A stretch of 52,576 bases of DNA, counting the filler, from Perkinsus olseni (taxonomy: Eukaryota): assembly GCA_013115125.1 (NCBI GenBank). It is 2 parts of 2 records of this genome, joined end to end, with 100 filler letters (N's around TTAATTAATTAA, not from the genome) between each part and the next. Parts side by side here need not be neighbours in the genome. Positions count along the whole stretch, not along the records: positions 26,344 to 52,576 come from JABANN010000486.1; 1 more part is not named here. One strand, 5' to 3'. Positions within the stretch are counted from its first letter, which is position 1; each line of letters opens with the position of its first letter. The notes under the pieces were generated by a model. That model did no database searches. It was given only the letters and a program-made list of their open reading frames with translations, and had not been told where the DNA came from. Below, in pieces: positions 26,100 to 52,576 of the stretch. The position numbers and the translations under genes are program-made.

Positions 26100-26174
26100 T
26101 CAAGCAGCTATGAGTTTACTGACAGAGTACCACGTAGAGGGTCGCGTGAAAGCGCCTTGGGAGCCTACCGTCTA

Positions 26175-27490: not shown

Positions 27491-29390
27491 TCACCCCTGC
27501 TGGTTCGTGAGACTCAGCGGGTCTCTCCCCTCATCCGCGGGCGTTGCTGATAGCCTTAGCACCTACAAGAATGGCACTTCTCGTGGTGACGAGCAAGATC
27601 CCCACCAGAGCTCCATTCTCATCCAGCCACCCAAGGTGCTCGTCTCTCATCTCGCGAACACTCATCAATAGGTTAGGCCCCCAGTTGTCATCTCCGGCGT
27701 CGGTCAGCGGGAGAGTGCCGACCCACCTCTAAGCGACACTGCGTGAGCTTCTTACATACCAGGCATCAAATGGGACCCCAAACTACCCTCGACTTACCAT
27801 CGAGTCTGTCAATCTCTTGTGATTGACGACCGTCAGCTTGAGCTTGAGAGGCCTTTGGGCCTCTGCATCTGAAAAGGAGAGAATAGACAGCAAACGCTTG
27901 CGAGGGGCGATCATATTCCTTCTGAGATGGACGAGTGAGAGAGCCAGGCTGATTTCCACGTCTGAGATATGCCATCTGCGGTGGTCCGGCAATCTCAGAT
28001 GGCAGTACCATCATCAAGCATTCCGACAGTTCATGCATCAGATTCCGACAGTACACACGAGAGAGTAACGAAAGAAAAGGGAAACGTGCCATCATAGGAA
28101 AAGGGATCTCGCAGCGAGATTCTCGCTGTCCAGGAGCCGCGTCCCCTTCAGAGATTACCCTTTCTGGCCAGCAAATGTACGTATACAGCCAGCGCTTCCC
28201 GGCCATGAGGATGGCCGAGATGACCAGCTGGATATGCAGCCACCTGAGGATGACTCATAGCATCGTAGCCGAGCAGAGCACAGTCGAACTGAAGTCAACA
28301 GCGCTGGTGACGACGAGCCAGAGTTAGCCCGCCCGAATCGTCTGCTTCTCCCGCGCGAGGCTCCCATCCTGTTTCGCTTGTTGATGCGGGGCTACTGGTG
28401 GGCACGAAAAGATGAGTAACTCACCTGTATGCGGTGATTGTTCATCCACATCGGTCTGAGTCTGATAACTTCGCCTTTCTCAAAGTCCGACACACCCTCA
28501 ATCTTGACTTCTTCGCAACCACCAGTGCCGACGACGAGACGTTGAGTAGGAGTCAGAGTAAACCTGCGATTCTCTTCCACGAACTTCTGGTCCATCAGGT
28601 ACACGCGTGCTCGTATGACCTACAGCGTCTCCATCAGGGAGAGCGAGCACGGAGGAATCACTAACAAATACTTGAACAATTTGACCGCGGGGTAAAAAAT
28701 ATATTCGTAAGTGTCGATGAACTGCTATTTGAAATAAGATGAGAGGCTTATCATGAGACCTACTATATTTCCGCTCCCATCGACGAAATCTTCTCGATCT
28801 GATTTCCTCACTCCCCCGAGTAAATTCCTCCATCCCGAATCCTGGTTCTTCCCGAAGCTCTTAAGATCAAACCAAGTCTGGAGGATTGGATGCAAAGAGG
28901 GGGCCCAAGCGGAGCGCTCACGATAGTCTTCTGCTCATCGCGTTGATTAATCACGCTTATCTCGAAAGCAACGTGAGGGAAAACCTCCCCGTCACTCACT
29001 CCTGACATCAGAATGGACCACAATAATACCGCCGAGAACAGGGGCTAGACTATACCGTCGGTAGAGATCCGCTCCAGAAAGACATCCAAGCCCTTCTTCT
29101 CTATCCCTTGCGGGTAGATCGTAAGCTGAGAGAGCGGCAGTGAAGCCCACGGATTGCGACAAAAAACGTTTCGAAATAGAGCAGTCGCTGCTCACCCGAT
29201 GATGAAAGGACCCGCAGCGCTTCGTTGGCGAGCGAATGCACTCCCCGACTTTGTACTTCGCGTCATTCACCCGGAATATGAGCTCAGAGAACCCCGCATC
29301 TCCGCTTGCTGAGACGAGAGAAAATACTGACTCTACGAATTTCGCAGTGCTGAATGACCGAACGAGCACTGTCCCATATAGCGTAGTCAT
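27491..29390 (-). CDS. Double MATH (TRAF-like) domain protein, array copy A
   Basis: Spliced reading: SELIFRVNDAKYKVGECIRSP..|LTIYPQGIEKKGLDVFLE..VAFEISVINQ..GWRNLL..|VIRARV..EVKIEGVSDFEKGEVIRLRP..|VAAYPAGH..LAVYVH..LKLTVVNH..DNWGPNLL..GWLDENGAL|VLRLSATPADEGRDPLSLTNQQG*. The YP-G, LxVYL, WG and GWL-D-L elements are typical of MATH domains. Confidence 0.78.
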
Positions 29391-31093
29391 CGGCGGGGAT
29401 TCGGAACCTCTCTATTGCAGTCCGGTCGAAGAAGACTGTCCACAGCTGGCCTGATCCAAGTTTGAATATTGGAGCGAGCCCGGCCTAAGTACATTGAAAA
29501 TTTGTAAAGTTTTCGCCTTGTGTGAGTTTCGCAGACCAGCTCTCACGTCGCATCGACAAAAGTAGATTTTTGATTTTCTTTCCTGCGGCCACACATCAAT
29601 TCCCGCACTGATCTCGCGCTCATCACTGATCCCGCACCGTTGAGTTGCCGCGTCTTATGTATAGGGCTGAAGCAGTCAAATTCTCGGGAAATCGAAAGTT
29701 CGTTCCGAGAAGGCGATTCATTCACCACACGACAGCTTAGGTCATTCTGAGTTCACCAGTGCCCTTCGCGGCCGCTGAATCGTCTGGACTGAGAAGAAAA
29801 CCTTACAAATGTGCAGCAGTGATTCGAAACACCACAGCACGATGCATAAGCAAAGTTGAAATCGACTCAAAACCTCGCTTATGTTATCGCTGAGGACGCA
29901 AAAGCCATCCATCCTTCCACGACAATGCACCACCGACGCATGCTAGTGAAGCAAAAACGATGGAGGTGATGAAGACTTTTCGGGATTACCAAATCGAGCA
30001 CACCCTTACTCGCAATGACTCCTCTGGCGGCCATCTCTCGCTGACTGGATGGGGCCATGAGAATCAGAAAGTACTTCTATAGGAGCTGCTGACTACAAAG
30101 CGCAAGTTAAACATTTTTAGCGAGAATGTTGTAGCAGACGATCAACACAACAATCAGCTGATCAGATTGAAATCCCCTTCAGCACCTTTCTCGTCGGCAT
30201 GGTCGGTTATCGCCATCATACGGAGAGTAACGGCGGGGCAAAGATCGACCTAGGGAGTGGTCAAGAGAGCATGGGCCGTGATTGAGCTCATCCGTCGTCC
30301 GTCCTGCTCAGAGATGATATCTGCGTGTCGGTTGAGGCTCATCAACGAATGAAAAGATCAAGGAGGTTCCCTTTCAGGATCCTCCACGTTCAACAACGGC
30401 GCCACGAGGCCTCAGACGACTGGTCTTTCACATCACAATGGGCCGACTCCAGCTAGCTGCAGAAAACAATGCAACATGGAAAGACAAAATCAACCACTGC
30501 ATTTAATTGGGAGTAAAGGGTGGAAAAGTAAAAACACAGTATTCCTGGGAAATCACGAAGATCAGGAGCGTGCGCATAAAACATTTCACCGGAAACTGCA
30601 CTTGTCCGAAAGAATGATAGAGAAGTTTATTTAACGGCTGAGGCGCGCTAGTCAGGCAGCTATGATAACGGTGATCTCGGCCCGACAGGGGTGAGAATTG
30701 GCCTCTCTGGTACGACTTGGAATCTCTGTCGAATTGACTACATACGCTGACTCGTCGTGAGATACTCAGGCACCCCACAGGTCGCGAGCACATCAAACCA
30801 CCATAATCTCACTTACCGCGACGTACACCTATTGGGTGATATCCCCTCTTCATCTAGAGGCTCATTGTTTAACTCAACCCAGTACACGCGAAACGGTGGA
30901 GGCTCCTCTCTTCCTCAACAGCAGAAGCAATGAGTTGTACAGTCCTCTCAATTCGGTTTACGGAGCATTCAAGAACAGAGCTTAGTCCGGCTCCAGTCGA
31001 GGTGTAATATTATATTAAAAATCGTAAATCATGAAAGGGCATAAGCTATCGATGCAGATGATGACGATGCCATCGTATGACACTGAGTCTCCC

Positions 31094-32482
31094 CTAGGAC
31101 CCGCGGAGCCTGAGAACGAGTTGGAGTGTTGAGTTTCCCTCGATACCATAGTCGACTATCAAGCGGCCATCCATAAGTTGCTGGCCGGCGTAAATAAGCC
31201 TTTGAGTATCTGGAGGATGCAAAAGGCCGTCTTCAATTCTCGCCTTAACATCCTCGACCTTGTAATGATTGTAGCAGCGAATTGCCAGTGTGCGTCCATG
31301 GAGGTCTTGGATCGTGATAGGGAAGGGGGATCCGCGAACACAGCCATCCACAGCGAGCTCGGCTCCACGACGAACCGCCGACAAGGCCTCATCCGATAGG
31401 CGCTCGCTATCACCCAGTTGGCGCCCGTTGAAAGATACTCGCGAAGTCCTATCATAACCTACCCTCCACAAGGCCCTTCGGATTCCCTGCACGCTGATGC
31501 ACGGAGAAACGGCTAGCTGGACCACATTGTTCGCCGAGTCCCTCACCCTCACTGCCGACGACCGCTTTAGACTCAGCACTACCGAGCACGAACGTTCATT
31601 CACGTAGGCCGAGAGAAGCCCATCCTCCAGCTCCCGGCCATTGAGTACGAGCCGTTGATGATCAGGAGGGAAGCCCGTCTCTCGTTCCACCATTTCCTTA
31701 ACCCGCGCCACCGTGTAGGAGGAGAGAGCATAGATGGAGGCGAACCCGCCGTCAAGAGTATCCGCCCTCACGTAAAGCCTCCCTACAGCTTCGACCCTCA
31801 GACGTACGAAGCCCTCCGCCTCGATACCCAACTCGCTGGCAGTGGTTGTAGCATGTTGTGCACCACCATCATCACTGGATATACTCTGTTGTGTGAGCGG
31901 GATGCCCCAACGGTCCCTGATTTCTCGCTGCACCTCGGCAATTGTGGTGGATGGAATAACATCGATCTCAATGGGACGATCCCCATACGTCAAGAGTCCG
32001 ACCTCGATGGTGGCAACGGTAATGAGACGGACGATGACATGTCGAGTGAGTTGTCTACTCAAGTACTCGGCAACAGCACGATAATCTTGCTTGATGCTGC
32101 CGGGCACCACCAGCCTCTGATCATCCGCCGATACACCAGTAACCTCCTCGATCTTACCCTTGATAGTTGAAATTGTATCGGGAGCATCAACAGATATCCT
32201 CACAGGGGCACCGGTGAGTCTCCTCACAGAAATGTCGACTTCGCCACATAGCCGAAGGACAAAGTGCAGATCGCGTTGTTGATTGTGGTTCACTTCAGAG
32301 AGGAACTGGTCGTCTTGAACGGGCTGGCCATTGAGGAAGAGCATTTGTTGGCACTCCGCGACACCAATCTTAGCTGATATCCTAGTCTTGAGCTCCCTCA
32401 CCAGTTGGGACGTCTCGGTGTCTACTATCACTGCTGGATTATACCCATCAGCCTCGGAGGGGAAGAAGAAGAAGGTGGGCAT
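31094..32482 (-). CDS. Intronless polyprotein of six divergent ubiquitin-like domains
   Basis: Six ~76-aa beta-grasp-like units, e.g. [55 protein letters not shown] and [54 protein letters not shown]. The first in-frame ATG is at 32482. Confidence 0.9.
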
Positions 32483-34074
32483 GAATAGTCGAAGACCTGC
32501 TATCCCACGCGGGCAACTACCGTGTAACCACAACTTGAGATCCGACAATACGAAATAGCGGATCCATCAGTTGCGGCAGTACTACGCTATGCTCTAGGAA
32601 TGCGCCGAGGGAAGGAACAGGATTTTCGCTATGGCAAGCTTTTCTTGGCAAGTTGAGAAGAATTGCAGGCAACAGACCATCGATACAGTCATCATTACTC
32701 ATAAGTCACTAACGCAGTCCGAAATATGTCCTGTGTAATGAAGCCAGACTCCGCCAGTGTATGCGTGCATTTGCTAGACTGGCACGCATGCGCATAAGTA
32801 GCGGCTGTATCCGTGAATCTCGTCCGGCAAGTCCAAAGGTAAACTCGTGGTAGCCCACAGTGCACTACTCCCAGCGGAGCTAACTGGCACTGAGTATCAT
32901 CTGTCATATTGCATGACCCAACACCAGCAGACCTGGTAAGTGATCCCTATTACCAAGAAGAACGACAAGTAATCTGCTGAGTGATCTCAACATCATGCGA
33001 ACCACCCATCAGGGCACCCAGGATCTTTCAACACGAATTCGCAACTAACGCTGGTCTTCTTATACCATCACAACGGTTGGTGTATGAAGCTCCCAAGAAC
33101 TGAGCACATCGGTGAAACTATAAGTGAGCTGGTAACCAACAGCGCGCATCTGTCCGCATGGAGATAACGAGGTGATCCTGACGGGCCTCGGGGATGATAA
33201 AACGCTCATTTTTCATTCACCCGTGCCTTTCTAATCAAGCTGAACAACTTCTCTTTCTTAACCTACGATGTGCAACGTACAATCTCGCCATGTTTATCTG
33301 TTAACGACCCGTACCATCATGCTTTTTCGTGTTCAAATCGGCCTCAATACCAAATCCAGCTCTCCCGCTCGAAAAATGTCGACCAGTAGCATGCCGAACA
33401 GCAAGTTTAACGTTTGACTTGGCAGGCCTGGGCCGTGAATTCCGGAACTTCGGTGCAGGGACCGTGATGACTCTGGAAGTCTCCTTCGAGAACTTCGGAG
33501 CCTCCGTATAACGAGTATTGCACCATACCGAGTACCAATGCGATCTTACACTCTCATCTAATACACTCTTCAATTCAGCCCATGACAGGTAAAAAGCCTC
33601 CCAGTCGCCAGCCTCCGGCCCAGAAAATTCCCCGTAGACCCGTAGGGGGCAAGCCACTTCGAAAAACATATATCCTGAGAATTCTAAGTTAAATCAAGGA
33701 ACGAGATTCTCATTGAAACAGTACTACCGAAATGCCAGAACGATTGGTAATCGGTAGTCGTGGTAGGTTGTGATGAAAATGGGCGGAGCGAAGGAGTGTA
33801 TGGGAAATGATGGTCCAGTCCCGGAGCGTATATCATCCAACAATCGAGATTCAGTTATCTGATTTAACCTTCTTGCTGTGACCTCGGGGAGAGTCTCCGG
33901 AATCTGGTATCTTCCTCTTAGTCGACCTGAGGGACACGATAGATCCGAGCCTAGACGCTGTGTTCATGGATTTCCTGAGAATGCGACCGAATGGAGCACC
34001 GACGATGCTCCTTCATTTCGCACGCGATTCCATACGGAGCCGCGTTAGAACTTAAACGCCCCGCTCGAATATAC

Positions 34075-36014
34075 CGTTTTTGTGTCTTCACGAAGCTCAG
34101 CGGGTCTCTACCCTCATCCGTAGCCTTCGCTGATATTCTCAGTATCTACTAGGATACTCACTAGCAAGGAGGGCGAGGCAGACCTGGCCGTGATCCCTAC
34201 CAAAGTTCCTTTCTCATCCAACCACCCCATCCCATTATTTCTCAGGTCTTCGATATTCAACAGTCGGTGGGGCCCCCAGCTGTCATCTCCTTCGTCACCG
34301 AACTCGACAGCGCCAGACCAGCTCTGATCAAATAAGAATGGGGCGCGAGAAGCCAGTGAAGTGCCCCAGAAGCAGGCCCACTCACGAAAAGCAATGCATA
34401 GCGAGGCGTAGAAACATCGAAAACAACTCAATCAATGTGATGGGTGCACTCAGCTAGAGGTTCTCAGCGAAACTAACTGACGGAGATTTGTCTATCCATC
34501 GCTCGGCGAGCGACGCTCGCAAAGTCTAGCCTGCACAAGGAGTCAGTCCCAACTCACAACAGAGTCCACAAATCTTCTGTGATTCACTACAGTGATCTTG
34601 AACTTGAGTGACTCATTTGGCACTACATCGCCTGATAAAGAAGGGAAGCGAGGCACATGGTCGAAGACTGATATAGATAAGTCATGCCGACGAGAACGAT
34701 ACATTACAAGCGCTAGTCGAACGAGCACTTTCCGCACTTCAAAAGCCAGCTTTACTCAAACGAGGATTTCTATCGAACCACTTGAATGCTTCGTGCACGC
34801 AAGTGCCGTCGAATTAATGGAGAGGTGAACTAGGCGATTCCACTGTCTATCACAGGCATGGAGGACAGTCTTTCATTTCCATACTGCAACAAGCACACTC
34901 GTTGCCATTCGAGCCTAGTAGGTGTACATATACAGCGAGCCCCTCTTGGCCACGAGGATGGTCGGGGTGGCCTCCCGGATACGCCGCGACCTGAAACCGA
35001 AGCATAGCTTCATGAGGTGAGATGAGAATCCCGAGAGTTAACGACGCGACAGGATCATAGATGGCGTTGAAGAGTGACGAAAGAGGCTATCGAAAGAAGG
35101 AGCATTCTCGCCCCTACCTCTCGAGCCACTCCGCTAGGGGGGCTCGGGATTGCGAAGCCGCCACGAGAAGAACGACGATGAGGAGCCCACCTGTATGCGA
35201 TGGTTGTTCATCCATACTGGCTTTGGCCGGACGACCTCGCCTTTTTGAAAATCGGCTACATCTTCAATCTTAATCTCTCGCTCCTCACTACCGGCAGCGA
35301 CATGTTGCGCCGGAGAGGACGCCAGCTTTAAAATCTCTACCAACTCCTCTGGATCTATTGAGTACACGCGTGCTCGTATGACCTACGCACAAGGTGCCCT
35401 CGCTGCTGGACTTCATCCGAGCATCATATGCCTCAGAGTGACTCGAAACTCTAGCGAAATTCGCCTTACTATTTCCTCCTTCATGTTCTTATAATCCTTC
35501 CGCTCTGATGACTGAAGACCTCTGAAAATGTCCCTCCACCCGGAGTCCTCATTCTTGCCGAAGCACTTTACATCCACACGAGTCTAAGAAATTAACTATA
35601 CCGAGAAGACAGCTCGTGGTTAGCGCCTACGATAGTGCTCTCCGCATCCCGATGATTCACCACACTTATATCGAAGGCGACGCACGGATAAGCTTGGCCG
35701 GCAATTCCTGATGAGTATGGGAGGCAGGGCGATACGACAGACCGCTACCATCTGGAGAGACTCGCTCGAGGAAGACATCCAATCCTTCTTTCTCCCTCCC
35801 TTTGGGAAAGACCAGAAGCTGAGGGAATACCGAAAAATGTGTGTCTCCTAGAAGCACTACCATCGACGCTCACCCGATGATGGAAGGACCCACACTGCTT
35901 CGTTGAGGAGCGAACAAACTCTCCGACTCTGTACTTAGCGTCATCCACTCGGAATATAAGCTCAGAGGCTTCTAAGGTTCGACTCGCTGGGGAAGAAAAC
36001 GATGCCCTATTCAT
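34075..36014 (-). CDS. Double MATH domain protein, array copy B
   Basis: SELIFRVDDAKYRVGEFVRS, LLVFPKGREKEGLDVFLE, EIKIEDVADFQKGEVVRPKPVWMNNHRIQ, VAAYPGGHPDHPRGQEGLAVYVH, LKFKITVVNH, DDSWGPHRLLNIEDLRNNGMGWLDEKGTL and ILRISAKATDEGRDPLSF. The stop position is uncertain. Confidence 0.75.
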
Positions 36015-38039
36015 AACGATCTCGACGCAGTTAGCGATTATGATGGAAGAGAAAAGTCGAGAGCGTTATCCGGCGCCTCCAGCACCCCCGACCCATGCAG
36101 GAGTTACGGTCAGTCGTGAGACCTCTCATTTGAAGGCTTCAACTGATTCTCATCGCGCCCGCTGCTGAGTGAATGGACAAATCGCTAGCACGTACAAGCA
36201 TATTCAACCGTACATGGGTAAGCTAGGATAGAGGGATCGACGAGGTTTGCGACGGTTTTCGAGCCTGAGATCAATCCCAACCTGCATTGTTGAGTGCCAA
36301 GACTTCTCTGCAGGCCGCCATTTGTTGATAGGTGACCCCTGAGCGGGTCGGTGGTACGGCCATGCGGATACCGAAGAGTACAGGCGCGAACTGCAGAGCG
36401 CTAGTGCTCCTCATTTTTCCTATACAGCAAGCGGACAAGGCAGAGGCGAAGAAGGAACGCAAAATCGTGGATTGGAAATCTCCAAGTTTGCTAGCACTGA
36501 GTCGACGCTACGCTCCGCCATTCATCTTAATATATCAAGGTTGACAGACTGCTGGAGAAAGAAGGAGTGCAAGTGCAGAGAAAACCAACCACGACTTCAA
36601 TCAGTCCGCAAACAGGAGAATCTTGGCAGGTTCCTGGCCGGGGGATGCCAGCTCGTAAGGGGGCTCTTTCCTTCCTAGTCAGATGCCTAGCTCTTAGGCG
36701 TTGCTACTACGTTAGGGACCTGCTCCGCAAAGGACCAGCCATGCTCTTCGGCGATCTTTGACCAATCTCACTGCATGCTCGGACGCGTTCCTCAGATTGG
36801 AGTGAAATGGCCCTCGGGGAGATCCGTTGCCGGCTCACTCCGCGCGGTGCGCGTCACGAGTCGTAGCAGACGCACCTAAGTTTTCTCATTCGCATGGGCA
36901 GGGTTCAACGAGGGTCTTTGAGTGACTTCATGTCGATGACTTTCAAAAGGCGCAAGGAAAGTCTTAGTGTCATGACGGAGTCAACGCTTATTCATCATCA
37001 ATTTACGAGACCAAATGCATTTGTTGGGAGGTTCACCCAGAGGGCGGTACACCCAAAAGGTCAGCGATGGAAGGAATCCAAGTGAGAGACGGCTGCATGA
37101 AGGCCAGCATGCATCCAAGGCCAGTGATTCTGTCAGTATGGACGATCAACGAGCCCTAGGACGCTTTCCAACTGGAAGATAAAAATTCACCTGCATTGTT
37201 GGATGCATGCGACCACTTCTTGCCTGTGATTGACCGAGCGAACCCGAACCGGATACTGCGGCCATGGGAACAGAACGAAGCTGAGAGCTGGACAGGCGTA
37301 CGTTCTAGAATTCCCTTGAGTTGAGTACCGCAGAGCCCTGATCTGAGATAAGCGCAAATCTGCGAAGTTTGCAAACGATTGAACTCTGTCGCCCAGACAT
37401 CATCATGACATGATTGGGGGGAGTCCAAAGGGTCATTACGCAGGACTGTAACTGGCCATCCGCTTTCAGAATTTTGCGTAGAACCTTTACCTTTCTCTGA
37501 GATGTCGAATTTCAGAATTCGGGACATTCTCCCCAGACCTGGAGTTGGTGAGGATAATGTAAGATATACACATAGCGCTGGGCCTCGATCCTGGCGATAA
37601 ACAAGATCAGCCGGGCGGAGCGGTTGTCGAATTCCAGAACGAGATCCAGACGCTGTACTCTGCCCACTCTCATTTTATAACAATGTTAAAGATGGGTTTA
37701 TTGTGCCCTGACGACTTTCGAAAGACCTCGAAAGCTGATGGGAACCCTCATACCCTGGAGTTTGCGAGACTCCCAGAAGGGGGCCCCGCAGGAGCTCCAT
37801 CTTCCCCAACCATTTCGTATCCTCATCCGCTTGGCCATCCATGTCGGGAGCCGATTTGATCCCTTGCAGCGACCTACAACGCCATCAAGCTGGGAGGCTC
37901 CGACCCAGCTCTGAGAATCACCGCCTCCACTAACATGAACGCGTGTATAACGACGTGCTAAGTACGAACGGACGCAGCCGCACGGACGAAGTGCACCAGC
38001 TCAGGATGGAGCTGAGCCCATTCAGGGATGTCGACTCTT

Positions 38040-38720
38040 GACGAGAAGAGCTGCCAATCCTGCAGTAAGAGCGGATCACTGGAGGGTGCTGAGCTCCCAC
38101 CTGTCCATTGCCTGGGATGCGCAGGTCAACGAACGCCATTCGCAGGCTAATCCGTGAGACTGAAGAGAGCCGAGACATCTACGATTGGTCGAAGAATCCA
38201 AGCCTCGAGCAACTGCTAGAAGTCGAAGGTGGGTACAGGTGAATCAGTACTAGCGAATCACTACGGAAAAGCGGCGTGTTTATCCTATACAGGGCTCCAA
38301 TCGACATCACATAGGTGGTAATCGAGTTGAAGGCGATTACGACAGAGTCTGTGGGTCCTTTGTGATTCATCACCGTGATAATGTTCAACCGCCTTCAAGA
38401 GGCGGAGAGGAGCAACGCATAGCAAGAGAAATTTCATAGCCTATTAGTGATGACATTTATCAGAGTAGCAGGGGTTGGACAATTACGACGATAATCTTCC
38501 GAGATTCCCCTTCTTCCCCAGTATATCGCCGACAATGAGGCCACCAGGCGGATGCAGAACAACGAAAACGAGGACGATTACGTAAAGAAACGACTCGCTC
38601 CCATAGCATGGGGATTCTCCACCGCCTCGCCGCTATCTCGGTGGTTCGCGAGGCTCATTTCAGAGATAACGTTCCCGTAGGTGAGTTGTGTGCCCAGCGC
38701 TGAGATTAAAGGCAGCAATA
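38040..38720 (-). pseudogene. Highly degenerate MATH-family relic, copy C
   Basis: Fragments QLTYGNVISEMSLANHRDSGE (cf. copy D QVTYENVVSQITLVNHRND) and LNIITVMNHKGPTDSVVI (cf. LTVVNHKRLTDSMV). Intervening exons are not recognisable. Confidence 0.5.
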
Positions 38721-39575
38721 GGTGAATGACCCATGAACTAGTTGAAAAGACCCGTATCATCATCCACGGGTATCCTCAGAAGGTGAGCGCTGAAGCTACC
38801 ATCAACCTGGTTCATTGCCAGGATCTGCAGCTGAAAGCGAAGCACAATGCTCGCCACATCACACAGGTCAAGCATGAAAGAGAAAAAGCAGCCTCTTGTC
38901 TCGACGAAGCTCATTCGGGTGATAGAAAGAAGAGTGACGAAATAACAGAACAACATAGCTGTCCTTCGCAGCCGAAGCATACAACCTGTCGAGACCCAAT
39001 TGAGAAAAGCATCCAGAACCCCTCTCGCATATCCGAGATATCTCGGAGCGGTAGGCTCGATGCGGCTTGAAGCGTGTTGTGTAGCAGACTTGGTGTCATG
39101 AGGCGAACTCCGCACCCTTCCTCTCGGAAGAAGAGACAACTCAGAACTTGGAGTAAATGCATGAAACTCCTTGATATGAGACAGGGAAGGCTTTGAATCC
39201 AAGTTCAGTACTCGTACGTAATGAGGCGCGATTCACGTCGGAAATAACGAGAAGAAATAAGTGAGAGAGTCGATGGAGAGAGGCTTCCATCGCTGTGTAA
39301 TTAGTTTTCGGATCTAGCATTCTTGGCTAGCCCTTGCAAGGGTCTTCCAGGATCGGAAGCTCTCCTCTTCTTGGCAGACCTGCACACGGCATGACATGTA
39401 TAACCCACACGATAGCCCTGAGAACTACAATCACTCAACTTTAAGGTTGAGATTCGGGTGTGACATTACAAAGCACCCTATTTCGCTCATTGGCTGGCAA
39501 GCATATTAGTTTTGTCTCTTCCGCAGTGCAGATTTCATATAGCGTGGGGCAGCCAGGATCCGCTTGGTATGGTTC

Positions 39576-41546
39576 TTACCCCTCTTTCTTAGTGAAGCTC
39601 AGTGGGTCTCTGCCCTCATCCGTAGCTTCCACTGATGTCCTGAGTACCTGAAGAGACTAGTGTTAGTCTTCAACGCTTGCTCCGCAGTTTTGAACGGACG
39701 AATAACAGTCTGACTTACAGGAGAGCCCACATAGCAGAGCACTCAATAGCAGATTGGGCCCCCAGCTGTCATCTCCTGCGTCATCGGTCTGGAAACTGCC
39801 GACCCAGTTCTGAAATACAACGTAAAGCACTACGCAATCGAATAGAGATTTTGACGGACAACCCGCATCTTATGGGAATAAAACCCATCAGTAACACAGA
39901 CTCGATGCATTGAGGAGCGCTAATACTCCACGGGCAATTTCCGAACTTATTTCATAAAGGTCATCATGCGATGCTGCCCCTCCCCGGTACGATAGAGTCC
40001 GTAAACTCCTTCTGATTCACCACCGCGACCTTGAGCTGCAGTGACCGAGAACGCGATTCACAACCTGACATAGAAGCGTTAACTGCTCCGTCTGCCATGT
40101 GAGCTGCACCGTTTGATGAAACATCCAGACAATGTCATCAGACACATCACGCGTATAGAGGGCGAGAAGCGAGCATACTTCGGCCCTACTCTTTTCTAGG
40201 ATACGGCTGCTGTATACAGCAAGCGCCTCTTGACCAGCGGCGTGGTCTGGGTGACCTCCTGGACACACGGCGACCTTGAAGGAAAACATCAACGCAAGTA
40301 CTGTAGCAGCTAAGGATTCGAATAGAGATAGACGAGCGCCATAGCCGTCGCCGTGTGAGCAACATAGTGTGGTGTCAAAATAGTACACCTCGGGAGTGGT
40401 TCACCTGGGTCCGATAGTTGCCTTTCCATACCGGCTTGAACTTGATGTCCTCGCCTCTCTTGTAATCGGCAACATCTTCAATCCGAACTTCCTGCTCGTT
40501 AGGTCCCGGTGGAAGAATCGGAGCTGGAGTAACATTGAGTCTCGCATTAGTCAGGTCCACCCGTGCCTTCATAACCTACGAAGATTGAAGGAAGCTAAGA
40601 AATATGTTTGCCGATTCCCGAGGAGGGCGATGGCGAGCTCAAGTATCAAGGAACCCCTCTGGTGTCGAAAGCTCAAGAAACGCGTGAAATGGAACCGCAC
40701 TACCGATTGTAGGGGCAGTAAACACGCTGCGAGGTGCATTTACTGAGGGCTCTGTGTGGGGACTTCTCCTAGACTTACTATGCCTCCTTCATCATCAAAG
40801 AAATCTGGATCCTCTGCCTTCTGCAGTTCCTTTTCGAGAAGTTTCGCCCATCCCCAGCTACATGACTTCATATCGTATGGCATTCCCAGACCTCTTCTTG
40901 TCTGAAGATAAGCCCAAGACTCTAGAAACTGAAGGGCGCTCGAAACGTTGTAGGTTCACTCATGCCGAGATCCCAGTCGCAAGAGCACTTACGATAGACT
41001 GCTTATCATTTCGATGGTTCACGAGGGTTATCTGCGAAACAACGTTCTCGTACGTAACTTGAGCGCTCACGCCTAGAGGAAGACCAGCCAACAGACGGCT
41101 TCGCGAAAGACGGCAAGAAGGCCCCGTACCACTCGTAGGGAGTCCAACGACATAGGCGCTCAAGGAGTTTTCAACCTCGCCCATGGGATAAACCTTGAGC
41201 TGAAACAGAAGAGCAGTACTCAGGATGTAGCTCGATGCGTATGAAATGATCGAACAAGACAAAAACTGTCGTTCAAATTCGAGCCGCAGCGGCTTCCCCT
41301 CACCTGATAAGTGAAGAGCTCGATCAATTTGGTAGGTGACTTGATGAACTCTCCAACTTTGAAATTCGCGACGTCTTTAATTCGGAACACCAGTTCGGAC
41401 ACTTTCGGATCTCCATTGGCTGAAGACACATCGAGGAAGAGACCGTCCGGAAATGGGAGTACTACCATCCTACCTCCATTCTTGTCATCGTCATCGTTGC
41501 TTGGATTCCCTTGGTTCCTCGAGGGAGACTTGACTGCCGCAGGCAT
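39576..41546 (-). CDS. Double MATH domain protein, array copy D (possibly damaged near the 3' end)
   Basis: SELVFRIKDVANFKVGEFIKSP, LKVYPMGEVENSLSAYV, ITLVNH, EVRIEDVADYKRGEDIKFKPVW, VAVCPGGHPDHAAGQEALAVY, DDSWGPNLL and VLRTSVEATDEGRDPLSFTKKEG*. The GWLDxxG segment appears deleted near 39720-39745. Confidence 0.68.
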
Positions 41547-42149: not shown

Positions 42150-42460
42150 TCACAACTCTCCTCTTTGTGAAGCTTAGCGGGTCGCGACCCTCGTCCGCAG
42201 ATACCACTGACATTCTGAGTAACTGCGAAGGGGTGAATGAGTCCATCAGCTTCAGAAATTACTTTTCCCGCGTGATCGAGAAAACTTTAAGCTCAAACCC
42301 GGAAAACTTCGAAACTGATGCGGTAGTGGCAGGCTCACCAGTTCGCCATCTCCATCCAACCATCCCTTGCTCTCATCTCTTAAGTCAGCAACGTTCATGA
42401 GTCGATTAGGGCCCTAGCTGCCATCCCCAGTACCACCAGGCTGGAAAGTGCCCACCCATG
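42150..42460 (-). pseudogene. Truncated MATH-family copy E (last two exons only)
   Basis: WVGTFQPGGTGDGS*GPNRLMNVADLRDESKGWLDGDGEL|LLRMSVVSADEGRDPLSFTK. The conserved Trp codon is mutated to TAG at 42414-42416 and upstream exons are absent. Confidence 0.75.
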
Positions 42461-43241
42461 ACCGAGAAGCAACTCAAACAGAATACCATTATGTACAAGC
42501 TACAGCTCTTCTACACTAGCCTCATTTGAAGCAGAGTGCGCCGACGGAGCAGTGCCCCGACCTCGCCAGCAGACACCCTGCCCCAGTGTCCATCACCTGG
42601 GATGATCGGGGAAACCAAAGAATCTTCAAGCTACTCGATCGTAGTGATCTCACCAGTAATCCATTCTCATCATACCGCTCCATGCTCATGCCTCTCGAAT
42701 CCGCAGAACACAAGGACTTGGCAGCCAGGAGACGCTTTAGTCACAAGATAATCTCGACCGATAACCATTCTGCACAGTCGCTTGGCTAGACTACTAGAGC
42801 CCATCTCCAGGAGATCATCTCCTGGGATTATCTGTGCAAGTCAGCGTTTTGCTCTAGTGATTGCTGTAGACAGCACTGTTCTCGTCTCTGACGCTAAGGC
42901 TCAGCGGCTAAGCGCCGCCAACAAGAGCGAAAAAATACAACCATGAGAAAAACTCATAGGAGTCGAAGCACCGGAATATAGAACAGCCCGAATTGTTTAT
43001 TGACTATGCAACACCACACTGCCACTTCAACTGAGAGAAGACCGTCTGACCAAAACTTACGCGGTATACCACCCTACCACGGGAAAAACGAACTTTCCTC
43101 GACCGCCTCCCAACACGGTCACGTAAAAAGATATCAGCCATGAAGACTGGAGCCACCACCGACTGCTACACATCATTGCCAAACTGGATCCAACATATCA
43201 TGAAGAGAATAATGTGACGACTATGACCTCGATAAGCTCAT

Positions 43242-44396
43242 TCAAGAAGATGCTGGGGGAGTCGCATTGGTAGGCATATACATCGACTTCACTGCGTTTG
43301 TCCATATACTATTAGAAGTAGATGTACCATGTAAAAGTAGTATCACTTCTTGACCACTTAACAACTTCCCTGCCATCTCGTTCACTATGTTGAGTGTCTC
43401 GTTCCGTATTTGAATAACCACCATGTTCTTAACATAAGACATACTCTTCGCTATCAGACTAGTACCATTAACAGCCACAGAAACCCCCACAGGCGTGTTC
43501 TTGTAGTACAAGTCACCTGTTACGTTGCCAACATGAGGTATAGTAATTACAGTTGGATTTGGTACCTCTACGCCGGAATAGCCAAATTGGGCCTGTATTA
43601 CACCTGGCACATCTGTCCAATATTTTTTCTTCAACTCAGCATCAGGTGGGAAAAACTGTATTGAGGTTGTAGATTTGCCCATAACCTTGGTGAAGTTATT
43701 GAAACCACTAATGCTAACAGATTTATCAAAATTAAGACCCTTAAAGGTAATACCCAAACCTTTCACGTCCATCTTGCCCTTCATGTTCAGCGAAACCGTA
43801 TCCTTCAGCATGACATCGACTCCAAATCCATCGAATACTGCTCTATCTGTAACATATAAAGTGGCATCATTAGTGAACTGAGTAGTGGCATGCCCAGCAA
43901 CATCCATCCGCGGTAGATAAACATAACCCAGCTGTTTACCATTAATATATATATCATTGCGTGACGGTAGAATAGTAGACGACATACTGTCACTTTTAAC
44001 GCTTATCTTCATAGTACTGTCCAAACATAGAGCCGCACTGGCGTCATTGCCACCACACTCAACGGGGTCGCGAATAGCCAACTCATTAAGATTCACAACC
44101 GATGAGTTCAGCCCGCTTTGCGCCATGGCTCTGCCACCAACGAACAATATCAATAATACAGCGACTATTATCAATATCATAAGTATAACAATGATAATCC
44201 ATAGCCATATGAACTGCTTACGACTTAGTTTGCCACAACAATACCGTTTAGCCGGTGCATCCGCAGCCAGTACCCCAGCACCGGCAAGTACTTTCTCATC
44301 ACTACCCGAGCGAATACCCTCTTCAAGCTCAGCTGGTGGCGGATGCTCCGTCTTACTTTGATCAGTCATACTGCTGTCTGACAACGGTTGGTTCAT
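43242..44396 (-). CDS. Intronless single-pass (type II) membrane protein, DUF3712 / LEA_2-like beta domains
   Basis: 424-codon ORF, likely start MNQPLS at 44396. TM helix FIWLWIIIVILMILIIVAVLLILFV followed by AMAQSGLNSSVVNLNELAIRDP..LGYVYLPRMDV..LYVTDRAVFDGF..VSLNMKGK..FDKSVSISGFNNF and VPNPTVITIPHVGNVTGDLYY, matching the DUF3712 pattern as recalled. Confidence 0.75.
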   Translation of the reverse strand: MNQPLSDSSMTDQSKTEHPPPAELEEGIRSGSDEKVLAGAGVLAADAPAKRYCCGKLSRKQFIWLWIIIVILMILIIVAVLLILFVGGRAMAQSGLNSSVVNLNELAIRDPVECGGNDASAALCLDSTMKISVKSDSMSSTILPSRNDIYINGKQLGYVYLPRMDVAGHATTQFTNDATLYVTDRAVFDGFGVDVMLKDTVSLNMKGKMDVKGLGITFKGLNFDKSVSISGFNNFTKVMGKSTTSIQFFPPDAELKKKYWTDVPGVIQAQFGYSGVEVPNPTVITIPHVGNVTGDLYYKNTPVGVSVAVNGTSLIAKSMSYVKNMVVIQIRNETLNIVNEMAGKLLSGQEVILLLHGTSTSNSIWTNAVKSMYMPTNATPPASS

Positions 44397-45523: not shown

Positions 45524-46978
45524 CTACCTTCTGCAAGCCATTGGATCTCGCCTTTCATTTGCGGCTTTCACAGATACTCGTAGTACCTTCGTACCGTAGT
45601 ACCTGCGATTCCTACCAGTGTTCCTTTCGTGCCCAGCCACCCATTCTTTTTATCCCTCAGATCTACCACACCCAAGAGTCAGTTGGGACCCCAGCTGTCA
45701 ACAGCCTCATCGCAGGATGCTACGCAGGATGCTACATTTATTTCATCTCCATGATTCGAAGGACAGAAGCGCCATCAGTGTTATCAGCTCCAAGAGCTTC
45801 TTGACTACTCCCTTCTCTTCAGTTACCGGACAAGGTCATGAAAGCGCAATTCGAAATTGCTAATTTCTCCGGGGCGCGGTCTTGGAGATGTAACGCTGAT
45901 ACCCCAGCTTACAATAGAGTTCCCAAGCTTCTTGCGGTTCGCCACAGTGACTGTTAGCTTCAGCGATTTAGGAGCTTTCTCGGTTTCTGATATGTGAACA
46001 ATACGCAGCAAAAAGCCACAAAACCATCAGGAATGACAAGCATCGGGCACACCCAATTTCATTCACAATTTAATCGGAGACGCAAACGTAAATATTACTG
46101 GTAACGCGTAACTGTTCCTCACCCCTTCTCCCTAGTATGTGTATATACACAGCTAGACCCTCTTGGGAATCGGCATGACCGGGGTGGCCTCCGGGATACG
46201 CAAAAACCTTGACCACATTGTGTAATGGAGTTGGAGACTGGCGAGCACCTCACTTGAATTCGGTAGTTGCCTCTCCAGGTGGGCTTGGATTTCATATCCT
46301 CGCCTTCCTCAAAATCGACAGCATCTTGGATCCTGAACCCCAGCTCATCCCCCTCCACGGAGACACCCTCAAACGGAGCTAGTAGCGCCTTCGCTGCTCT
46401 GAGGTCCACCTGTGCTTTAATAACCTACAAAAACCATGCTTTGAGGAGAACTGAAAGTCGAGAGGTGGCGAAGGTCTTCGGACGCCGGATACTAATGATC
46501 GAGTAATCCGCTCCCCAAGAGGCCAAGTTGTTTATCGGAGAGCACGCGAAAGCATATGAAGGGACTCACTATGCCTCCTTCCTGATCGAATAAGTCTGGG
46601 TATTTTGCTGGCAGCAGCTTCTCGTGGAGAAGGTCCACGTCGCAGCTCGCTTCATTCGTTGTCAAGCAATCGTTGAGCACTCCGCCGGTCTAAATAAGTA
46701 CGATCACGAGGATAGTGAGCGAGAATATGCAGTCAATGACTATTAGTCGTAGGATCCGCTGCACAGACATCGTCATTCACCTGATAGTTGAAGAGCTCTA
46801 CAAGTTCTGTTGGCGACTTGATAGACTCCCCGACTTTGTACTTGGTAACGTCATCGATGCGGAAGACAAGCTCAGATATTCTTGCGTGTCCGTCATCTAA
46901 GGAGCAATACCCACCTCGCTTCTTAGTGTGCCCACATCTTTTCCCGATAAAGTCCATCTTATGCCACTCCCGTTTCAT
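45524..46978 (-). pseudogene. MATH-family pseudogene, copy F
   Basis: SELVFRIDDVTKYKVGESIKSP and FRIQDAVDFEEGEDMKSKPTWRGNYRIQ are present, but the LKVYP and ITLVNH exons of domain 1 are missing. DSWGPN*LL nonsense codon (about 45679), a frameshift before GWLG, and an eroded tail NERRDPMA. Confidence 0.72.
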
Positions 46979-47431
46979 AGATATCTACATGATTTCTTTT
47001 CCGAGTTTGATTTCCGAGCCTGTCCCGAGAGCCAAGAGAAAGTTTCCGTTTTAGAGAGCCGCTCAAAGGAACATCACTGCTCAGGCACATCGTCCCGTAG
47101 CGAGTGTTGGACGACTGCTCGTTGAACGTTACCAAACAGACGAAGAACGGACGGCACAAGTCATCCACGTTGACTGATATGCCGAGCGGATGCTGCTATG
47201 GGGCGGACGCGGCAAATTATTGAGTCTAGCTAATATCCAATGGATATGAAAATTCAGGGATTGCAATACCATTCGCCATCCTACCACGATCGTCGGCGTC
47301 GCTTACCGTTAGAGGAATGTCTTATTGTTGTCTATCTCCCAATCTCAGTGTGCATGCGTGCACCCTTTTAGCTATGGTAACACTGGTTGGTTGTTGTGCG
47401 ATCAGTACTGATGAGATTGGTATAAGTCAGT

Positions 47432-48500: not shown

Positions 48501-48862
48501 CCATTGTTCTTGTCGAGTCGTCATTGTCGACGAGTCGGAGATGCAGAAAAAAGGTACGAGAGGAACAAAGTGAGCAAAGGGACACTGTGAATAGTAGTTC
48601 TGGAGTTATTCGTCGGTCTTGGCACTCTTTGCGCGTCCCTGCGCAGCCTCTTCATTGTTCGTAGCTCTCCTCCTCTTGGCAAAGCTGAAAGCACATCACT
48701 CAAATACCACAAAGATAGTCTCGATAACGCGGTGACACCCTCTGAGATTATTTGTCCACGAGCAGCACATTCATACTCTACGCAGTGGTCTTATTTACTA
48801 ATCAATGTGCGACACGAGAGGCATGAAATTTTCTTGCGAATCGCGACTAGCCTGAAGTGTGA

Positions 48863-50445
48863 TTACCTCTTCGTAAAACTGAGCGGGTCTCGACCCTCAT
48901 CCGCGGCCTCCACTGATGCCCTGAGTAACTAGGGAGGAGGCACCGAATTTGTTTTTCCCCAGTAACATTCGCGTTCTTACCAGCTCTCCGTCCTCATCCA
49001 ACCATCCTTTATCCCCATCTCTTAGATCTTCAATACTCAACAATCGGTTAGGGCCCCAGCTGTCATCTCCGACTTCTTCAGGTCGGAAAGTGCCGACCCA
49101 TTCCTGACAACCACCGCCTTCACAAAGCTGTAGCAGCGTCAGCCAGGCAAGAGAATCACGGTGACAGCTATTCAGTCGTGAAAGCCGAGCAGAAGTTTCA
49201 ACGCGCCCAGCGGCTCCGTGGCAGCATCCCCGTCCGTGGACCTAATCGCTGCCTCCCCTTACAATAGAATCCCCGAGCATCTGGTGGTTAACCACCGCAA
49301 CCTTGAGCTTCAGGAATTCGGGAGCTGCTTCTACTTCTGATATGAAGGCCATTCATCGATCTCAATACGGAGGCGAATCGCCGTCCATCCCACCTTTCTT
49401 TCCTAAAACGTGTATGTAGACAGCGAGTGCCTCTTGGCCATCAAGATGGTCAGGGTGCCCTCCTGGATACACCGCAACCTTGAAGAAATGAAATAATTTG
49501 GTGATACTCGATGCAGCGGACATGCGCAGCACTCTGGCGCGCTGGGCCAAAGCATCTCACCTGTATTCGGTAGTTGCCTCTCCATGTCGGCTTGAATTTC
49601 ACGTCTTCGCCTTTTTCAAAGCCGGTGACCTTTCCAATCCAAATATCCTCATCATCGGGGTCCGCCGCAGCCAGAACCAGCTTCGAGTGATTCAGGTCCA
49701 CGCGTGCCTTGATGACCTATACGAACCATAGTGAATAGGATAGGGAAATAGCCGAAAAGTGCAGAGAACTGCGTTCCAGGTGGTAGACTCTCTGCTACTT
49801 CAGACGAGAAGTCGATGGTACGCTAAATATAGACTCACTATGCTCCCTTCATCCGTGAAGAATACGAACTTCTTCGGCCGTAGCTCCTCGACGAGAAATT
49901 TATCCCAGCCGTGGGCTTGTGAATTCCGGAACGACTCGCAATACCTTCGCTTTGTCTGGACAGGAGAGTGAGCCCTTCACTGGTTACGAGAGAAATGCAG
50001 CTCAGATCGTACACGGATACTGGTTTATAGGAAAGCGAGATGCTTACCAAAGGTTCGCTGGAGTCCCAGTGGTTCTCTAGGCTGACCTCATAACCAACGT
50101 TTTCGTAGACACCACGAGGATCAATTCCTGAGATGATATAAACGTCGCACAGACAACAGCTATGAACGACGACCTGTACCATTCATAGGAACTCGCTGGA
50201 GGTAGAAGGCGAAGTTGTTTTCAACCTTCCCCATGGGGTAGACCTTGAGCTGAACGACCAACGCCCACTACGGGGATAAGTTGACAGCCCGGGCCTCCAT
50301 TACTCGATAATTGAACAGCTCGATCATTTCACTCGATGACTCCACAAACTCTCCGACTTTGTACTTGGTTACATTATCGATGCGAAATTCGAGCTCAGAC
50401 ACTTTTGGATCGGCTGAAGAGCAACAAAATCATACTACTGTACAT
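48863..50445 (-). CDS. Double MATH domain protein, array copy G (start uncertain)
   Basis: SELEFRIDNVTKYKVGEFVES, LKVYPMGKVENNFAFYL, VYENVGYEVSLENH, GWDKFLV, VIKARVDL, FEKGEDVKFKPTWRGNYRIQ, VAVYPGGHPDHLDGQEALAVYIH, LKLKVAVVNH, DDSWGPNRLLSIEDLRDGDKGWLDEDGEL and LLRASVEAADEGRDPLSFTKR*. Confidence 0.8.
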
Positions 50446-52111
50446 CTTCGCTAATTCCGGAAACAAAACGAAGCATCATTCCGAGCGAAGAGGGCTCCCC
50501 TGAATCTATCATGCAAACACCAAAGAAAGTGGGTTTTCAACGCTCCGGAAGGAGAAAGGAGGAAAAATTAAGAAATCGTCGAGCGGGAGTGAGCCATCTT
50601 ACAAGGACTGATTAGCTGCTCCCACTCGGATACTTCGCTGCCGCTTTCAACTGCTGCGGTTGTGGTCGGTTCATCATTCGACTGCGGCTCGGCAGCGGCA
50701 GACATTATGGCTGGCGACGAAGAGCTGCAGTGCAACTGCTACACTAGGGCGCGTCTCAAACGAGATCTCTTTCACTCGCGGAGGTTCAAATTTCACTGAA
50801 GTCAAACGGTGATTGACAGCCGTCAATCATCGACATCGATCAACAATACTATCCCGCTTCAGTGAGATACTAGGCATGAAGTCACACCAGTGTTGCTGTG
50901 ATAGCCCTCAATGTTGCACAGGTTTCAGCAACTAATCCAACCAGCCAGCGGCTCCGTGTCGTTGAAGAACCACAAGCGCCTCGTGACAAGACTATGAAGG
51001 TTCATTCTTCGCCTCAGCATGTATCAACCGAGAAAATCCCTTGGATTGACAAACCTTTTAACACGAGCCACATAGACAGAAAAGCGGTCCACGGATCTCC
51101 GCAAGACCGCTCATACAGAATCGTCATTGCAGTCGACAGTGACTGTAGCACGGCAACTGTGAGACTCATGAGACAACACAAGCTTGAATACTGCAAGACT
51201 GCCCACCCTGACGGTCTAAACCTCCGACGAGAAGCATGACACGTCCGGAATACACAGAGCGGAGAGGAATATCGCTGGGGCTGCTTTAGCCCAGCAGAGC
51301 CAACCAGGCAGTTCATGTCGCATCGGTGAGTTTATGCAGTCTCCCTGAATGAGTTTCTCCGATTTGAGGAAGCCTTCACGCGATCAGAGAGTCCTACACC
51401 GCTTTCTGTGCGGTGGAGCTGCTAGGGTGAGGCAAAAGCACAACATGAAGAAAAGCCCCATCCATAGAGTAAGGACAGACCGCTTGCACCAGTAGGATTA
51501 TCGCTCACCGTCAAAAAGTCTAGGGTTTTCAGACTCATTTCTCTTCTCATGCAATTCACACTGCCGTGGTTAGTGGCACAACGCTCCCGAAATAAAAAGC
51601 CTTGCTCACCGTCATTGTGCCACTATTCAGGGACCGATGGAACTCTGTAGACAAGTAGCAGATAAAACGTAACAAGGGGGCGAGCCTGCCAACAACCAAA
51701 CGGCTTGACGGGTTCGTTAGAATATATGAGGAGCTCTGCCATGTAAAGTCAATTCATCATTGAAGATGTAGCGGAAGTGAAGGAACAGAAGTTGAGAAGG
51801 AACAACCAATGGTAGTGCAAAGCGCTTGCAGTGGGAGTGCTTTGCGCTCAGCGTGCAAACCGTCCACTCTTGGTGGACCTCTCAGCATTCGACGCGCTTC
51901 TTTTTCTGTCGGACCTGGGAAACATACACAGCGAGCAAACCGTCTGGGCGGTTCGGGAACACAGCAGCCGGTCCGCGGCTTATTCAGGGCGTCCCATGAG
52001 CGCTTCAAATTGCACTAACAACGCACGCACGGGTTAACCGAGAGTCCCGTCCCACTATCCCACTCCCGTCCCGGGCACTATCAACTGACCCGTTGAAGGC
52101 AACCGGCCTCC

Positions 52112-52576
52112 CTACCTTATGGAAGCCAGTGGGTCTCGCCCTTCGTCTGCAGCTTTCACTGATGCTCGAAGTACCTTCATTCAAGTGAAGCGTGGATAAG
52201 TGAAATGAAGTGCGACCCCACCAGGGCTCCATTCCTGTCCAGCCACCCATTGTTCTTGCGCCTCAGATGTGCGATACTCACTAACCTGTTGGGACCCCAG
52301 CTGTCAACAGGCTTGCCGCCATCGGGCAGGAATGTGCCGATCCTGGTCTGACGAGCATCGCTCCTCCCAAACGTCAATGACGGAAGATGTTGCACAGGAA
52401 AGAACTTCCATCATGGAAGCATGAATAGCCTATGCCGTTCCTCTCAGTTACCCGAGACTCTCCGGTGGAGAGGGAGCAAGACTTGAAAGTGCAAGTTCTC
52501 CAAATTGTAGAGATATCCCGACTGTTGTTGCGCAACTCGTTATTGGCCATTGATGAATGATGACAGAGTAGTTGCG
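52112..52576 (-). CDS. MATH-family copy H, 3' part only (continues beyond the window or is truncated)
   Basis: IGTFLPDGGKPVDSWGPNRLVSIAHLRRKNNGWLDRNGAL|VLRASVKAADEGRDPLASIR*. Confidence 0.68.

Follow-up and report, generated by a model that had tools for sequence, protein, structure and literature searches.

A tandem array of genes encoding two MATH domains and no other recognised domain in Perkinsus olseni

In plants, MATH-only proteins with one or more domains are known and tandem clusters occur in land plants; PMC10218331 gives as examples the Arabidopsis pair TRAF1a/TRAF1b (MUSE14/MUSE13), described as adaptors associated with E3 ligases, as well as RTM3, the two-MATH protein At3g58420 and potato StMATH04-08 and 11-14. 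The MATH fold is also found in the N-terminal TRAF-like domain of USP7/HAUSP (2f1w, 2f1z, 1yy6), in the Cullin-3 adaptors SPOP, plant BPM and nematode MATH-BTB (bath), and in animal TRAF1-7 and TRIM37. SPOP carries a C-terminal nuclear localisation signal (NLS), RTM3 has a coiled coil, and a 2006 study by Thomas is said to have found positive selection in nematode MATH domains. Here we describe an array of double-MATH genes in the shellfish parasite Perkinsus olseni (assembly GCA_013115125.1), located in a window of 52,576 nucleotides (nt), filler included, which is the whole stretch of DNA analysed and along which all positions are counted; positions 26,344 to 52,576 come from JABANN010000486.1. 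Self-comparison and exon search identified eight co-oriented minus-strand copies or remnants at 27,060-52,347, and self-comparison of the whole window confined repeated exon-sized minus-strand matches to 27-52.5 kb. The tandem double-MATH array is real, and as an enlargement of an adaptor type already known it is fairly ordinary; its new features are its occurrence in an alveolate, the putative internal duplication, the split between a constant and a variable groove, and the NLS-like tail. No paper on MATH genes in Perkinsus was found in the literature searched, which lacks most subscription journals; the genome itself was reportedly published by Bogema and colleagues in 2021.

Exon limits were set by coordinates with database Perkinsus proteins as guides, giving 11 exons per gene. 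Copies A, B and G have open frames after splicing and 11 exons with identical intron phases, and their proteins are 39-52% identical in pairs; the donor is GT in 29 of their 30 introns, the exception being a GC at intron 7 of B. Copy A (27060..30058, minus strand) is intact, with GT-AG introns and 353 amino acids (aa) encoded in exons 1-6 at 30058-30010, 29308-29196, 29125-29056, 29001-28922, 28877-28764 and 28619-28425 and exons 7-11 at 28243-28159, 27868-27798, 27728-27606, 27562-27495 and 27153-27060. Copy B (33851..36363, minus strand) is intact, its product having 358 aa if the GC donor at 34906 is used or 365 aa if splicing takes an in-frame GT donor at 34885, and copy G (48606..50705, minus strand) is intact with 352 aa, its first domain (MATH1) lying at residues 40-166 and its second (MATH2) at residues 183-312. 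The gene layout, set out for copy A, consists of a short N-terminal arm, MATH1, a linker, MATH2 and a basic tail; exon 11 encodes this basic, NLS-like tail in every full copy, and the stop codon of the array genes lies 40-47 residues past MATH2. Directly after MATH2, exon 10 of A, B, D, E, G and H (e.g. 27562-27495) encodes a nearly invariant DEGRDPL motif, at the position of which a second P. olseni array has EG-x-NP. The sequence-only reading had proposed eight co-oriented minus-strand copies with a common exon structure, A, B and G being intact, D carrying a deletion, C, E and F broken and H partial, and both the arrangement and the copy states were borne out by coordinate splicing and exon hidden Markov models (HMMs). 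Its extent of 27491..52576 held for the array itself but not for the 3' limit, since 27491 marks a stop inside intron 10 and copy A continues to 27060; likewise the shared exons stood, but exons 1 and 11 of every full copy had been missed. Several window exons are 94-100% identical to the database protein P0011, and a profile search with exon 6 matched 13 proteins, all named Perkinsus olseni.

Two MATH domains per copy and the lack of a BTB, RING or USP domain had also been proposed, and here too Pfam, an HMM of outside domains and the predicted fold agreed. Pfam MATH_2 (PF22486) was matched at or above its 32-bit cut-off by six of the seven array relatives scanned (P0001, P0003, P0005, P0007, P0009 and P0011), the seventh, P0004, scoring 31.3, and single exons gave a Pfam match in none of three. 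When the spliced A, B and G sequences were compared with an HMM of 49 outside MATH domains, each of their domains scored 42-72 bits, the best of 200 shuffles reaching 1.1; the scores are favoured by the choice of the 49 domains as best matches. Beside MATH_2 no other Pfam domain was found in the seven relatives: there was no UCH catalytic domain (PF00443), no BTB at E<=0.1, and no match to RING, zinc fingers or coiled coil. The 11-exon genes leave no space for BTB or BACK. The array proteins thus fit the MATH-only class of at least one MATH domain and no other recognised domain, and fall outside the USP7, SPOP/BPM and TRAF groups. An AlphaFold2 model of P0007, which is 95% identical to copy G, was built from 22 sequences and showed two all-beta sandwiches with disordered ends and no long helix (mean predicted local distance difference test 71.6; predicted template modelling score, pTM, 0.53), so that both domains were predicted to fold as the eight-stranded antiparallel beta-sandwich of the MATH/TRAF-C superfamily. 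With VIA-align, residues 37-176 reached Z 15.4 to both the USP7 TRAF domain (root-mean-square deviation 2.6, 128 aligned) and the SPOP MATH domain, and residues 178-325 reached Z 13.2 to TRAF5; the top Foldseek match was the SPOP MATH domain (6i68, TM 0.75 by target), and by sequence the nearest solved structure was the USP7 TRAF domain (E 6e-6).

The USP7 TRAF domain is the best sequence match among solved structures and ties for the best fold match, and its groove Gly and Phe118 aromatic are kept in Perkinsus; the Perkinsus proteins differ in having neither the UCH catalytic domain nor the ubiquitin-like (UBL) repeats of USP7, in the doubling of the MATH domain, in lacking Asp164 in most copies and in a structural identity of 12-13%. 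With SPOP, BPM and bath proteins they share the MATH fold, and with SPOP a C-terminal signal of NLS type, here NLS-like, but they have no BTB or BACK, so no direct cullin binding is expected, and unlike animal TRAF1-7 and TRIM37 they have no RING, zinc fingers or coiled coil. Plant MATH-only clusters are alike in architecture, tandem expansion and a proposed ubiquitin-ligase adaptor role (PMC10218331); the Perkinsus genes differ from them in their alveolate host, their shared intron positions, their groove split and NLS-like tail, in domains that do not group with multi-MATH outside matches in a weak tree and, as regards RTM3, in that no coiled coil is seen in the Perkinsus model. The layout of two MATH domains recurs in the second P. 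olseni array (P0025, P0162-P0164) and in P. chesapeaki FOL47_008939, with the same groove trend and, in several members, a basic tail, but their identity to this array is ~25-31%. In A, B and G, all four introns occupy the same alignment column and phase (0, 1, 0, 0) in MATH1 and MATH2, which suggests that a gene with a single domain, already carrying those introns, was duplicated internally. On the simplest reading of these positions, the gene would have arisen from a one-MATH ancestor that may be akin to the TRAF domain at the N terminus of USP7-type enzymes. A weakly resolved FastTree of 79 domains over 127 columns joined the MATH2 domains of both arrays in one clade (support 0.996), placed MATH1 of this array among USP7-like outside matches (support 0.979), and kept the array domains apart from multi-MATH outside matches.

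To compare the grooves, 11 peptide-contact residues of USP7, taken from PMC1334386, were mapped by sequence alignment onto both domains. The results showed that, among seven paralogues, the MATH2 groove has a mean pair identity of 0.84 vs 0.52 elsewhere in the domain (P=0.001), and its Tyr, Trp, Gly and Trp-Gly-Pro are invariant in 7/7, whereas the MATH1 groove has 0.29 vs 0.45 (P=0.049). The second array (eight sequences) ran in the same direction, with 0.33 vs 0.48 for MATH1 (P=0.08) and 0.75 vs 0.59 for MATH2 (P=0.07), and when whole domains are compared, 18 of the 21 pairs of paralogues have MATH2 as the better conserved one (mean 0.55, vs 0.45 for MATH1). MATH1 nevertheless keeps its core, the groove Gly (7/7) and an aromatic at the Phe118 position (7/7). 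In addition, a basic NLS-like motif was found in 12 of 15 C-terminal tails from both arrays, nine of them bipartite, including those of A, B and G. We tentatively favour, at somewhat under an even chance, a reading of these proteins as Perkinsus-specific, intracellular and probably nuclear bridging adaptors built of MATH domains alone, in which a fixed MATH2 would dock a shared ubiquitin partner and a variable MATH1 would select clients. The tail would serve for nuclear import, and each copy would use its MATH1 to bind a set of short peptide motifs of its own. The partner docked by MATH2 would be common to all copies and most likely a ubiquitin ligase or deubiquitinase, so that the copies would bring different clients to one and the same ubiquitin machinery in trans and make up for the absent BTB or USP domain; the whole would be an old tandem array that is still losing and gaining copies.

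Several points weigh against the bridging adaptor. The MATH1 groove test is borderline, with 11 alignment-mapped positions in related, non-independent paralogues, and its P of 0.049 was obtained after one P0015 strand was re-anchored by hand (before: 0.28, P=0.034); a variable MATH1 groove is, moreover, equally expected after functional loss of that groove. Neither domain keeps the Asp164-Trp165-Gly166-Phe167 set of USP7: at these positions MATH1 has the Asp in 2/7 and the Trp in 1/7, and MATH2 has S/N-W-G-P in 7/7. The pTM of the P0007 model is only 0.53, so the relative placement of the two domains in it is of low confidence, and the FastTree contains no joint clade of MATH1 and MATH2, being too weak to decide on their duplication. 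Finally, the NLS-like motif was called with our own regular expression and no shuffle control, and 3 of the 15 tails do not have it.

The sequence-only reading had offered host interaction as one possible role, and here the data ran the other way. None of the seven paralogues has a signal peptide, hydrophobic N-terminus or membrane segment, the highest 11-residue hydropathy in the first 35 aa being 0.92 and the highest 19-residue value 0.89; together with the NLS-like tail at the protein end, this makes a protein working in the parasite's own nucleus more likely than an effector that is secreted. Effectors that bind TRAF or ubiquitin pathway proteins of the mollusc host would suit the parasitic lifestyle and a fold common to host TRAFs, and spliced contigs of B and D do occur in run X10, which is labelled as another organism, but without any export signal we regard this alternative as most improbable.

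We searched three times for relatives of the array and obtained 37 named proteins, 36 from P. olseni and one from P. chesapeaki; no P. marinus relative appeared in the three word-index searches, which makes that absence weak. These relatives support the lineage restriction that had been proposed. Public annotation already names several members 'MATH domain-containing protein', and the relatives include the second P. olseni cluster with neighbouring locus tags (e.g. FOZ60_006359-006364). Two of the database proteins, P0019 and P0020, seem to be models in which adjacent double-MATH genes have been fused. P0021, which has 3539 aa, 19 MATH stretches and ricin-B lectin domains, is unrelated. An IQ-TREE analysis was made of seven window copies and 18 database sequences, from which copy C and P0011 (a mis-spliced model) were excluded and in which P0002 was trimmed and P0016 split. 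Each window copy clustered with its counterparts from other assemblies and not with its array neighbours (support 98-100), the identities being 86% for A with P0009 (and 91% with P0010), 93% for B with P0005, 95% for G with P0007, 75% for D with P0001, 83% for E with P0017, 85% for F with P0002 and 98% for H with P0015. The locus-tag prefixes of these relatives we take to represent different isolates.

Among the copies wholly within the window, four of seven (C, D, E and F) are broken. Copy C (38341..38845, minus strand) is a remnant with exon-3-like and exon-4-like pieces (38845-38620; 10.4 and 10.8 bits vs best shuffles of 5.8 and 4.3) and a marginal exon-8-like piece at 38379-38341 (7.6 bits vs shuffle 7.1). 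Copy D (39301..41546, minus strand) has an exon 9 of 91 nt instead of 123 and a frameshift at the exon 9/10 junction, so that its product runs for 304 aa to a premature stop located 36 nt ahead of the last exon junction; it keeps MATH1 but lacks the basic, NLS-like tail and the last part of MATH2, which scores 19.9 bits with 90 of 129 positions covered, and its database counterpart P0001 likewise ends within exon 9. Copy E (42157..42472, minus strand) is a 3' remnant of exons 9-10 only with a stop in exon 9, yet in other assemblies both domains are annotated in its nearest relatives, P0014, P0017 and P0018 (clade support 98). In copy F (45528..46896, minus strand), exons 2 and 6-10 are recognisable, exons 3-4 and most of exon 5 are absent and exon 9 contains a stop; exons 3-4 persist in its counterpart P0002. 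Copy H (52116..52347, minus strand) shows exons 9-10 only, the remainder lying beyond the window edge, and its counterpart P0015 is a two-domain protein of 312 aa. In another assembly the place directly upstream of B is taken by an additional copy, I (P0016, P0023), which has left at most a possible trace in the window at 37176..37295 (minus strand; 50% over 40 aa with the first 40 residues of P0016, E 2e-4), which is uncertain because it matches none of the exon HMMs, and a further copy, J (P0003/P0004), occurs in other assemblies and is absent from the window. An exon-7-like scrap at 45119-45045 (BLAST E 0.03-0.9) was rejected as falling below the shuffle threshold of the exon HMMs, and two plus-strand matches near 4420, barely over threshold, were dismissed as noise.

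The homologous introns of A, B, G and D align no better than shuffles (3/54 pairs at p<=0.03) and the synonymous divergence (dS) among these copies is 0.7-2.1, indicating that the duplications are old; no young duplicate was found among the window copies and their relatives. The losses are thus recent and vary with the genotype, and the duplications are old. Gene conversion within the array was considered and rejected, as paralogue exon identity is 50-79% with no exon frozen or homogenised, and the share of identical codons is 47-60% per pair with no consistent peak; an 85% patch in exon 2 of A and B might, without proof, go back to an ancient conversion. Birth-and-death evolution is marked by divergent duplicates of old age, pseudogenes, copies won and lost between lineages and a lack of homogenisation, and the process, also anticipated from the sequence, is supported by the window remnants together with full-length E and copies I and J in other assemblies.

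With 4/7 copies broken and two unrelated intronless genes (multi-ubiquitin-like and DUF3712) sitting inside the array, we considered whether its turnover might be nearly neutral, as in one of many tandem arrays made by Perkinsus, only MATH2 or one or two copies mattering while MATH1 drifts under relaxed constraint and redundant copies decay. Pairwise ratios of nonsynonymous to synonymous divergence (dN/dS) among A, B, G and D were 0.29-0.47 for MATH1 and 0.16-0.50 for MATH2 (12 values by Nei-Gojobori, with dS near saturation), none of the 12 domain comparisons exceeding 1, which fits such an account. So does the classing of 39 strain differences (among the 40 of 625 that were listed), which gave no signal of selection and did not separate copy A (5 synonymous and 5 non-synonymous codons) from its ubiquitin-like neighbour (15 and 11; Fisher P=0.72). 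Against it, A, B and G still have open frames and both folds at a stage when their introns can no longer be aligned, MATH1 retained its core and the two groove residues named above, and MATH1 of B and G changed by only 8 and 6 residues from their counterparts, below the 12-21 changes expected in a neutral simulation at 4.5-8% nucleotide difference, a background rate drawn from a separate data set (run X21, which differs from the window by 3-8% in eight listed pieces). We hold near-neutral turnover to be rather unlikely; if true, the array would be one more tandem expansion in a duplication-prone genome.

The same simulation gave the opposite result for copies A and D, whose MATH1 differs from its counterpart at 28/125 and 35/129 residues, above the neutral expectation, and in the allele-like pairs of A, B and G together more of MATH1 than of MATH2 was changed (42/376 vs 20/389, P=0.002). 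These values, the variable MATH1 groove and the presence or absence of copies between assemblies would suit a positively selected defence repertoire whose MATH1 domains would recognise viral or transposon proteins in the nucleus and route them to degradation; as a precedent, Caenorhabditis MATH genes are clustered and turnover-prone, and the dispensable families of Caenorhabditis nigoni are headed by MATH, BTB and F-box genes, for which an immune role has been speculated (PMC12951971). However, no dN/dS above 1 was measured, the MATH1 excess among the intact copies is due to A alone, P0009 and P0001 may not be allelic to A and D but represent paralogues or old haplotypes, and the background rate came from a different data set. 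Just 1/11 MATH1 groove positions changed in each of the A, B and G pairs (three in D), and most of the changes in copy A lie in loops, as judged by eye on the alignment. In addition, no link to a virus or transposon was found, and a literature search by title gave no Perkinsus virus paper. We consider a defence repertoire unlikely; it is in any case a special case of the bridging adaptor with a foreign client. The 'rapidly diversifying recognition repertoire' suggested by the sequence-only reading is partly borne out: the MATH1 groove varies more than the remainder of its domain, but only at P~0.05, and the duplications are old, with an average dN/dS of 0.16-0.50.

Evidence for transcription came from sequencing runs, 20 of the 21 listed of which contain part of 33701-43700. 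Contigs of four runs (X7, X8, X10 and the DNA run X21) were compared with 27000-46999, a stretch outside which G and H lie, and contig depths were unfit for ranking expression. Among the 15 joints listed of 57, 14 coincide exactly with predicted introns (five of B, nine of D); all of these occur in X7 and X8, eight also in X10 and none in X21. The fifteenth connects distant places with no GT-AG ends and probably derives from a paralogue elsewhere. Copy A is covered by contigs in X7 and X8, no A joint being among the 15 of 57 listed. At intron 7 of B, the X7 and X8 contigs stop at 34884, adjoining the in-frame GT donor 21 nt beyond the GC donor, and the X10 contig runs into the intron, so that this intron is probably spliced at the GT donor or sometimes retained. 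The exon 9/10 joint of D is out of frame in all three spliced runs (X7, X8 and X10), confirming D as a transcribed, truncated copy. Cover in X21 is nearly nil over C and D (depth 0-0.8 in 38339-41006 vs 5-13 over A, B and the inserted genes); this gap may reflect absence, divergence above 18% or filtering and was not used as evidence.

That truncated copy D is still transcribed and spliced would also be expected if the proteins were decoys without catalytic parts, which would tune USP7- or SPOP-like enzymes by competing for the peptide motifs that these bind and would bridge nothing. The kinship of the array with the USP7 TRAF domain by sequence (E 6e-6) is in keeping with this, as is the presence of a UCH domain in 17/37 and of BTB in 1/37 of the outside proteins P0033-P0069, drawn from the best 150 of 210 library matches. 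A pure decoy, however, fails to explain one fixed and one variable groove in two separate arrays, and we judge decoys to be very unlikely. The canonical [DNE]-W-G-[FYW] strand was found in 0/14 of the library matches checked.

The two genes inserted in the array are both on the minus strand. Between A and B lies a multi-ubiquitin-like gene (31094..32479; 461 aa), which matches PF00240 with 164 bits in four stretches and consists of several diverged units, the last ending LRLRGS rather than LRLRGG; it is transcribed, with one unspliced contig in X7 and X10, and X8 and X10 hold a second ubiquitin-like paralogue, ~83% alike. Between E and F lies a DUF3712/LEA_2 membrane-protein gene (43242..44396; 384 aa) of lower G+C with one hydrophobic segment, covered by single unspliced contigs in X8 and X10; the P0002 model fuses copy F to the start of this gene, which indicates the same neighbourhood in another assembly. 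At 45183-45250 there is a ~70 bp piece of a high-copy repeat, with many loose contig ends in all four runs, a summed depth of 300 in X21 vs 1-13 nearby and no Rfam match, and the adjoining 44605-45102 has contig cover in X7 and X8. Outside the array, a perfect 72-bp inverted repeat at 26171-26415 flanks two 44-N runs (26244-26287 and 26300-26343) and is probably an assembly join; 5130-8716 holds two tandem paralogous stretches of a minus-strand gene (5130-6763 vs 7165-8695, 78-88% in patches); and 21268-22007 (minus strand) contains exons of a probable histidine acid phosphatase with an RHG motif and a weak His_Phos_2 match (E 0.044). Rfam gave no matches in the window, and a Pfam scan of 12 other long open reading frames of the window gave nothing over cut-off.

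The most far-reaching form of the bridging adaptor is a BTB-free two-pocket system from an internally duplicated MATH gene, in which MATH2 would be a constant dock for a ubiquitin enzyme and MATH1 a diversifying sensor of foreign nuclear proteins from viruses or transposons, with copies and truncated decoys such as D segregating between isolates; we regard it as a long shot. If the two-pocket reading is true, it would show how proteins made of MATH domains alone can serve as substrate adaptors though they have no BTB, RING or USP parts, a question posed by the many MATH-only genes of plants and nematodes. The family would also be small and tractable, one copy of a domain giving specificity and the other docking. 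A sensor of foreign proteins would be the alveolate counterpart of the F-box and MATH-BTB immune repertoires of nematodes, made from a single domain type, and a defence role, if true, would make these genes the first concrete candidate for cell-intrinsic immunity in Perkinsozoa.

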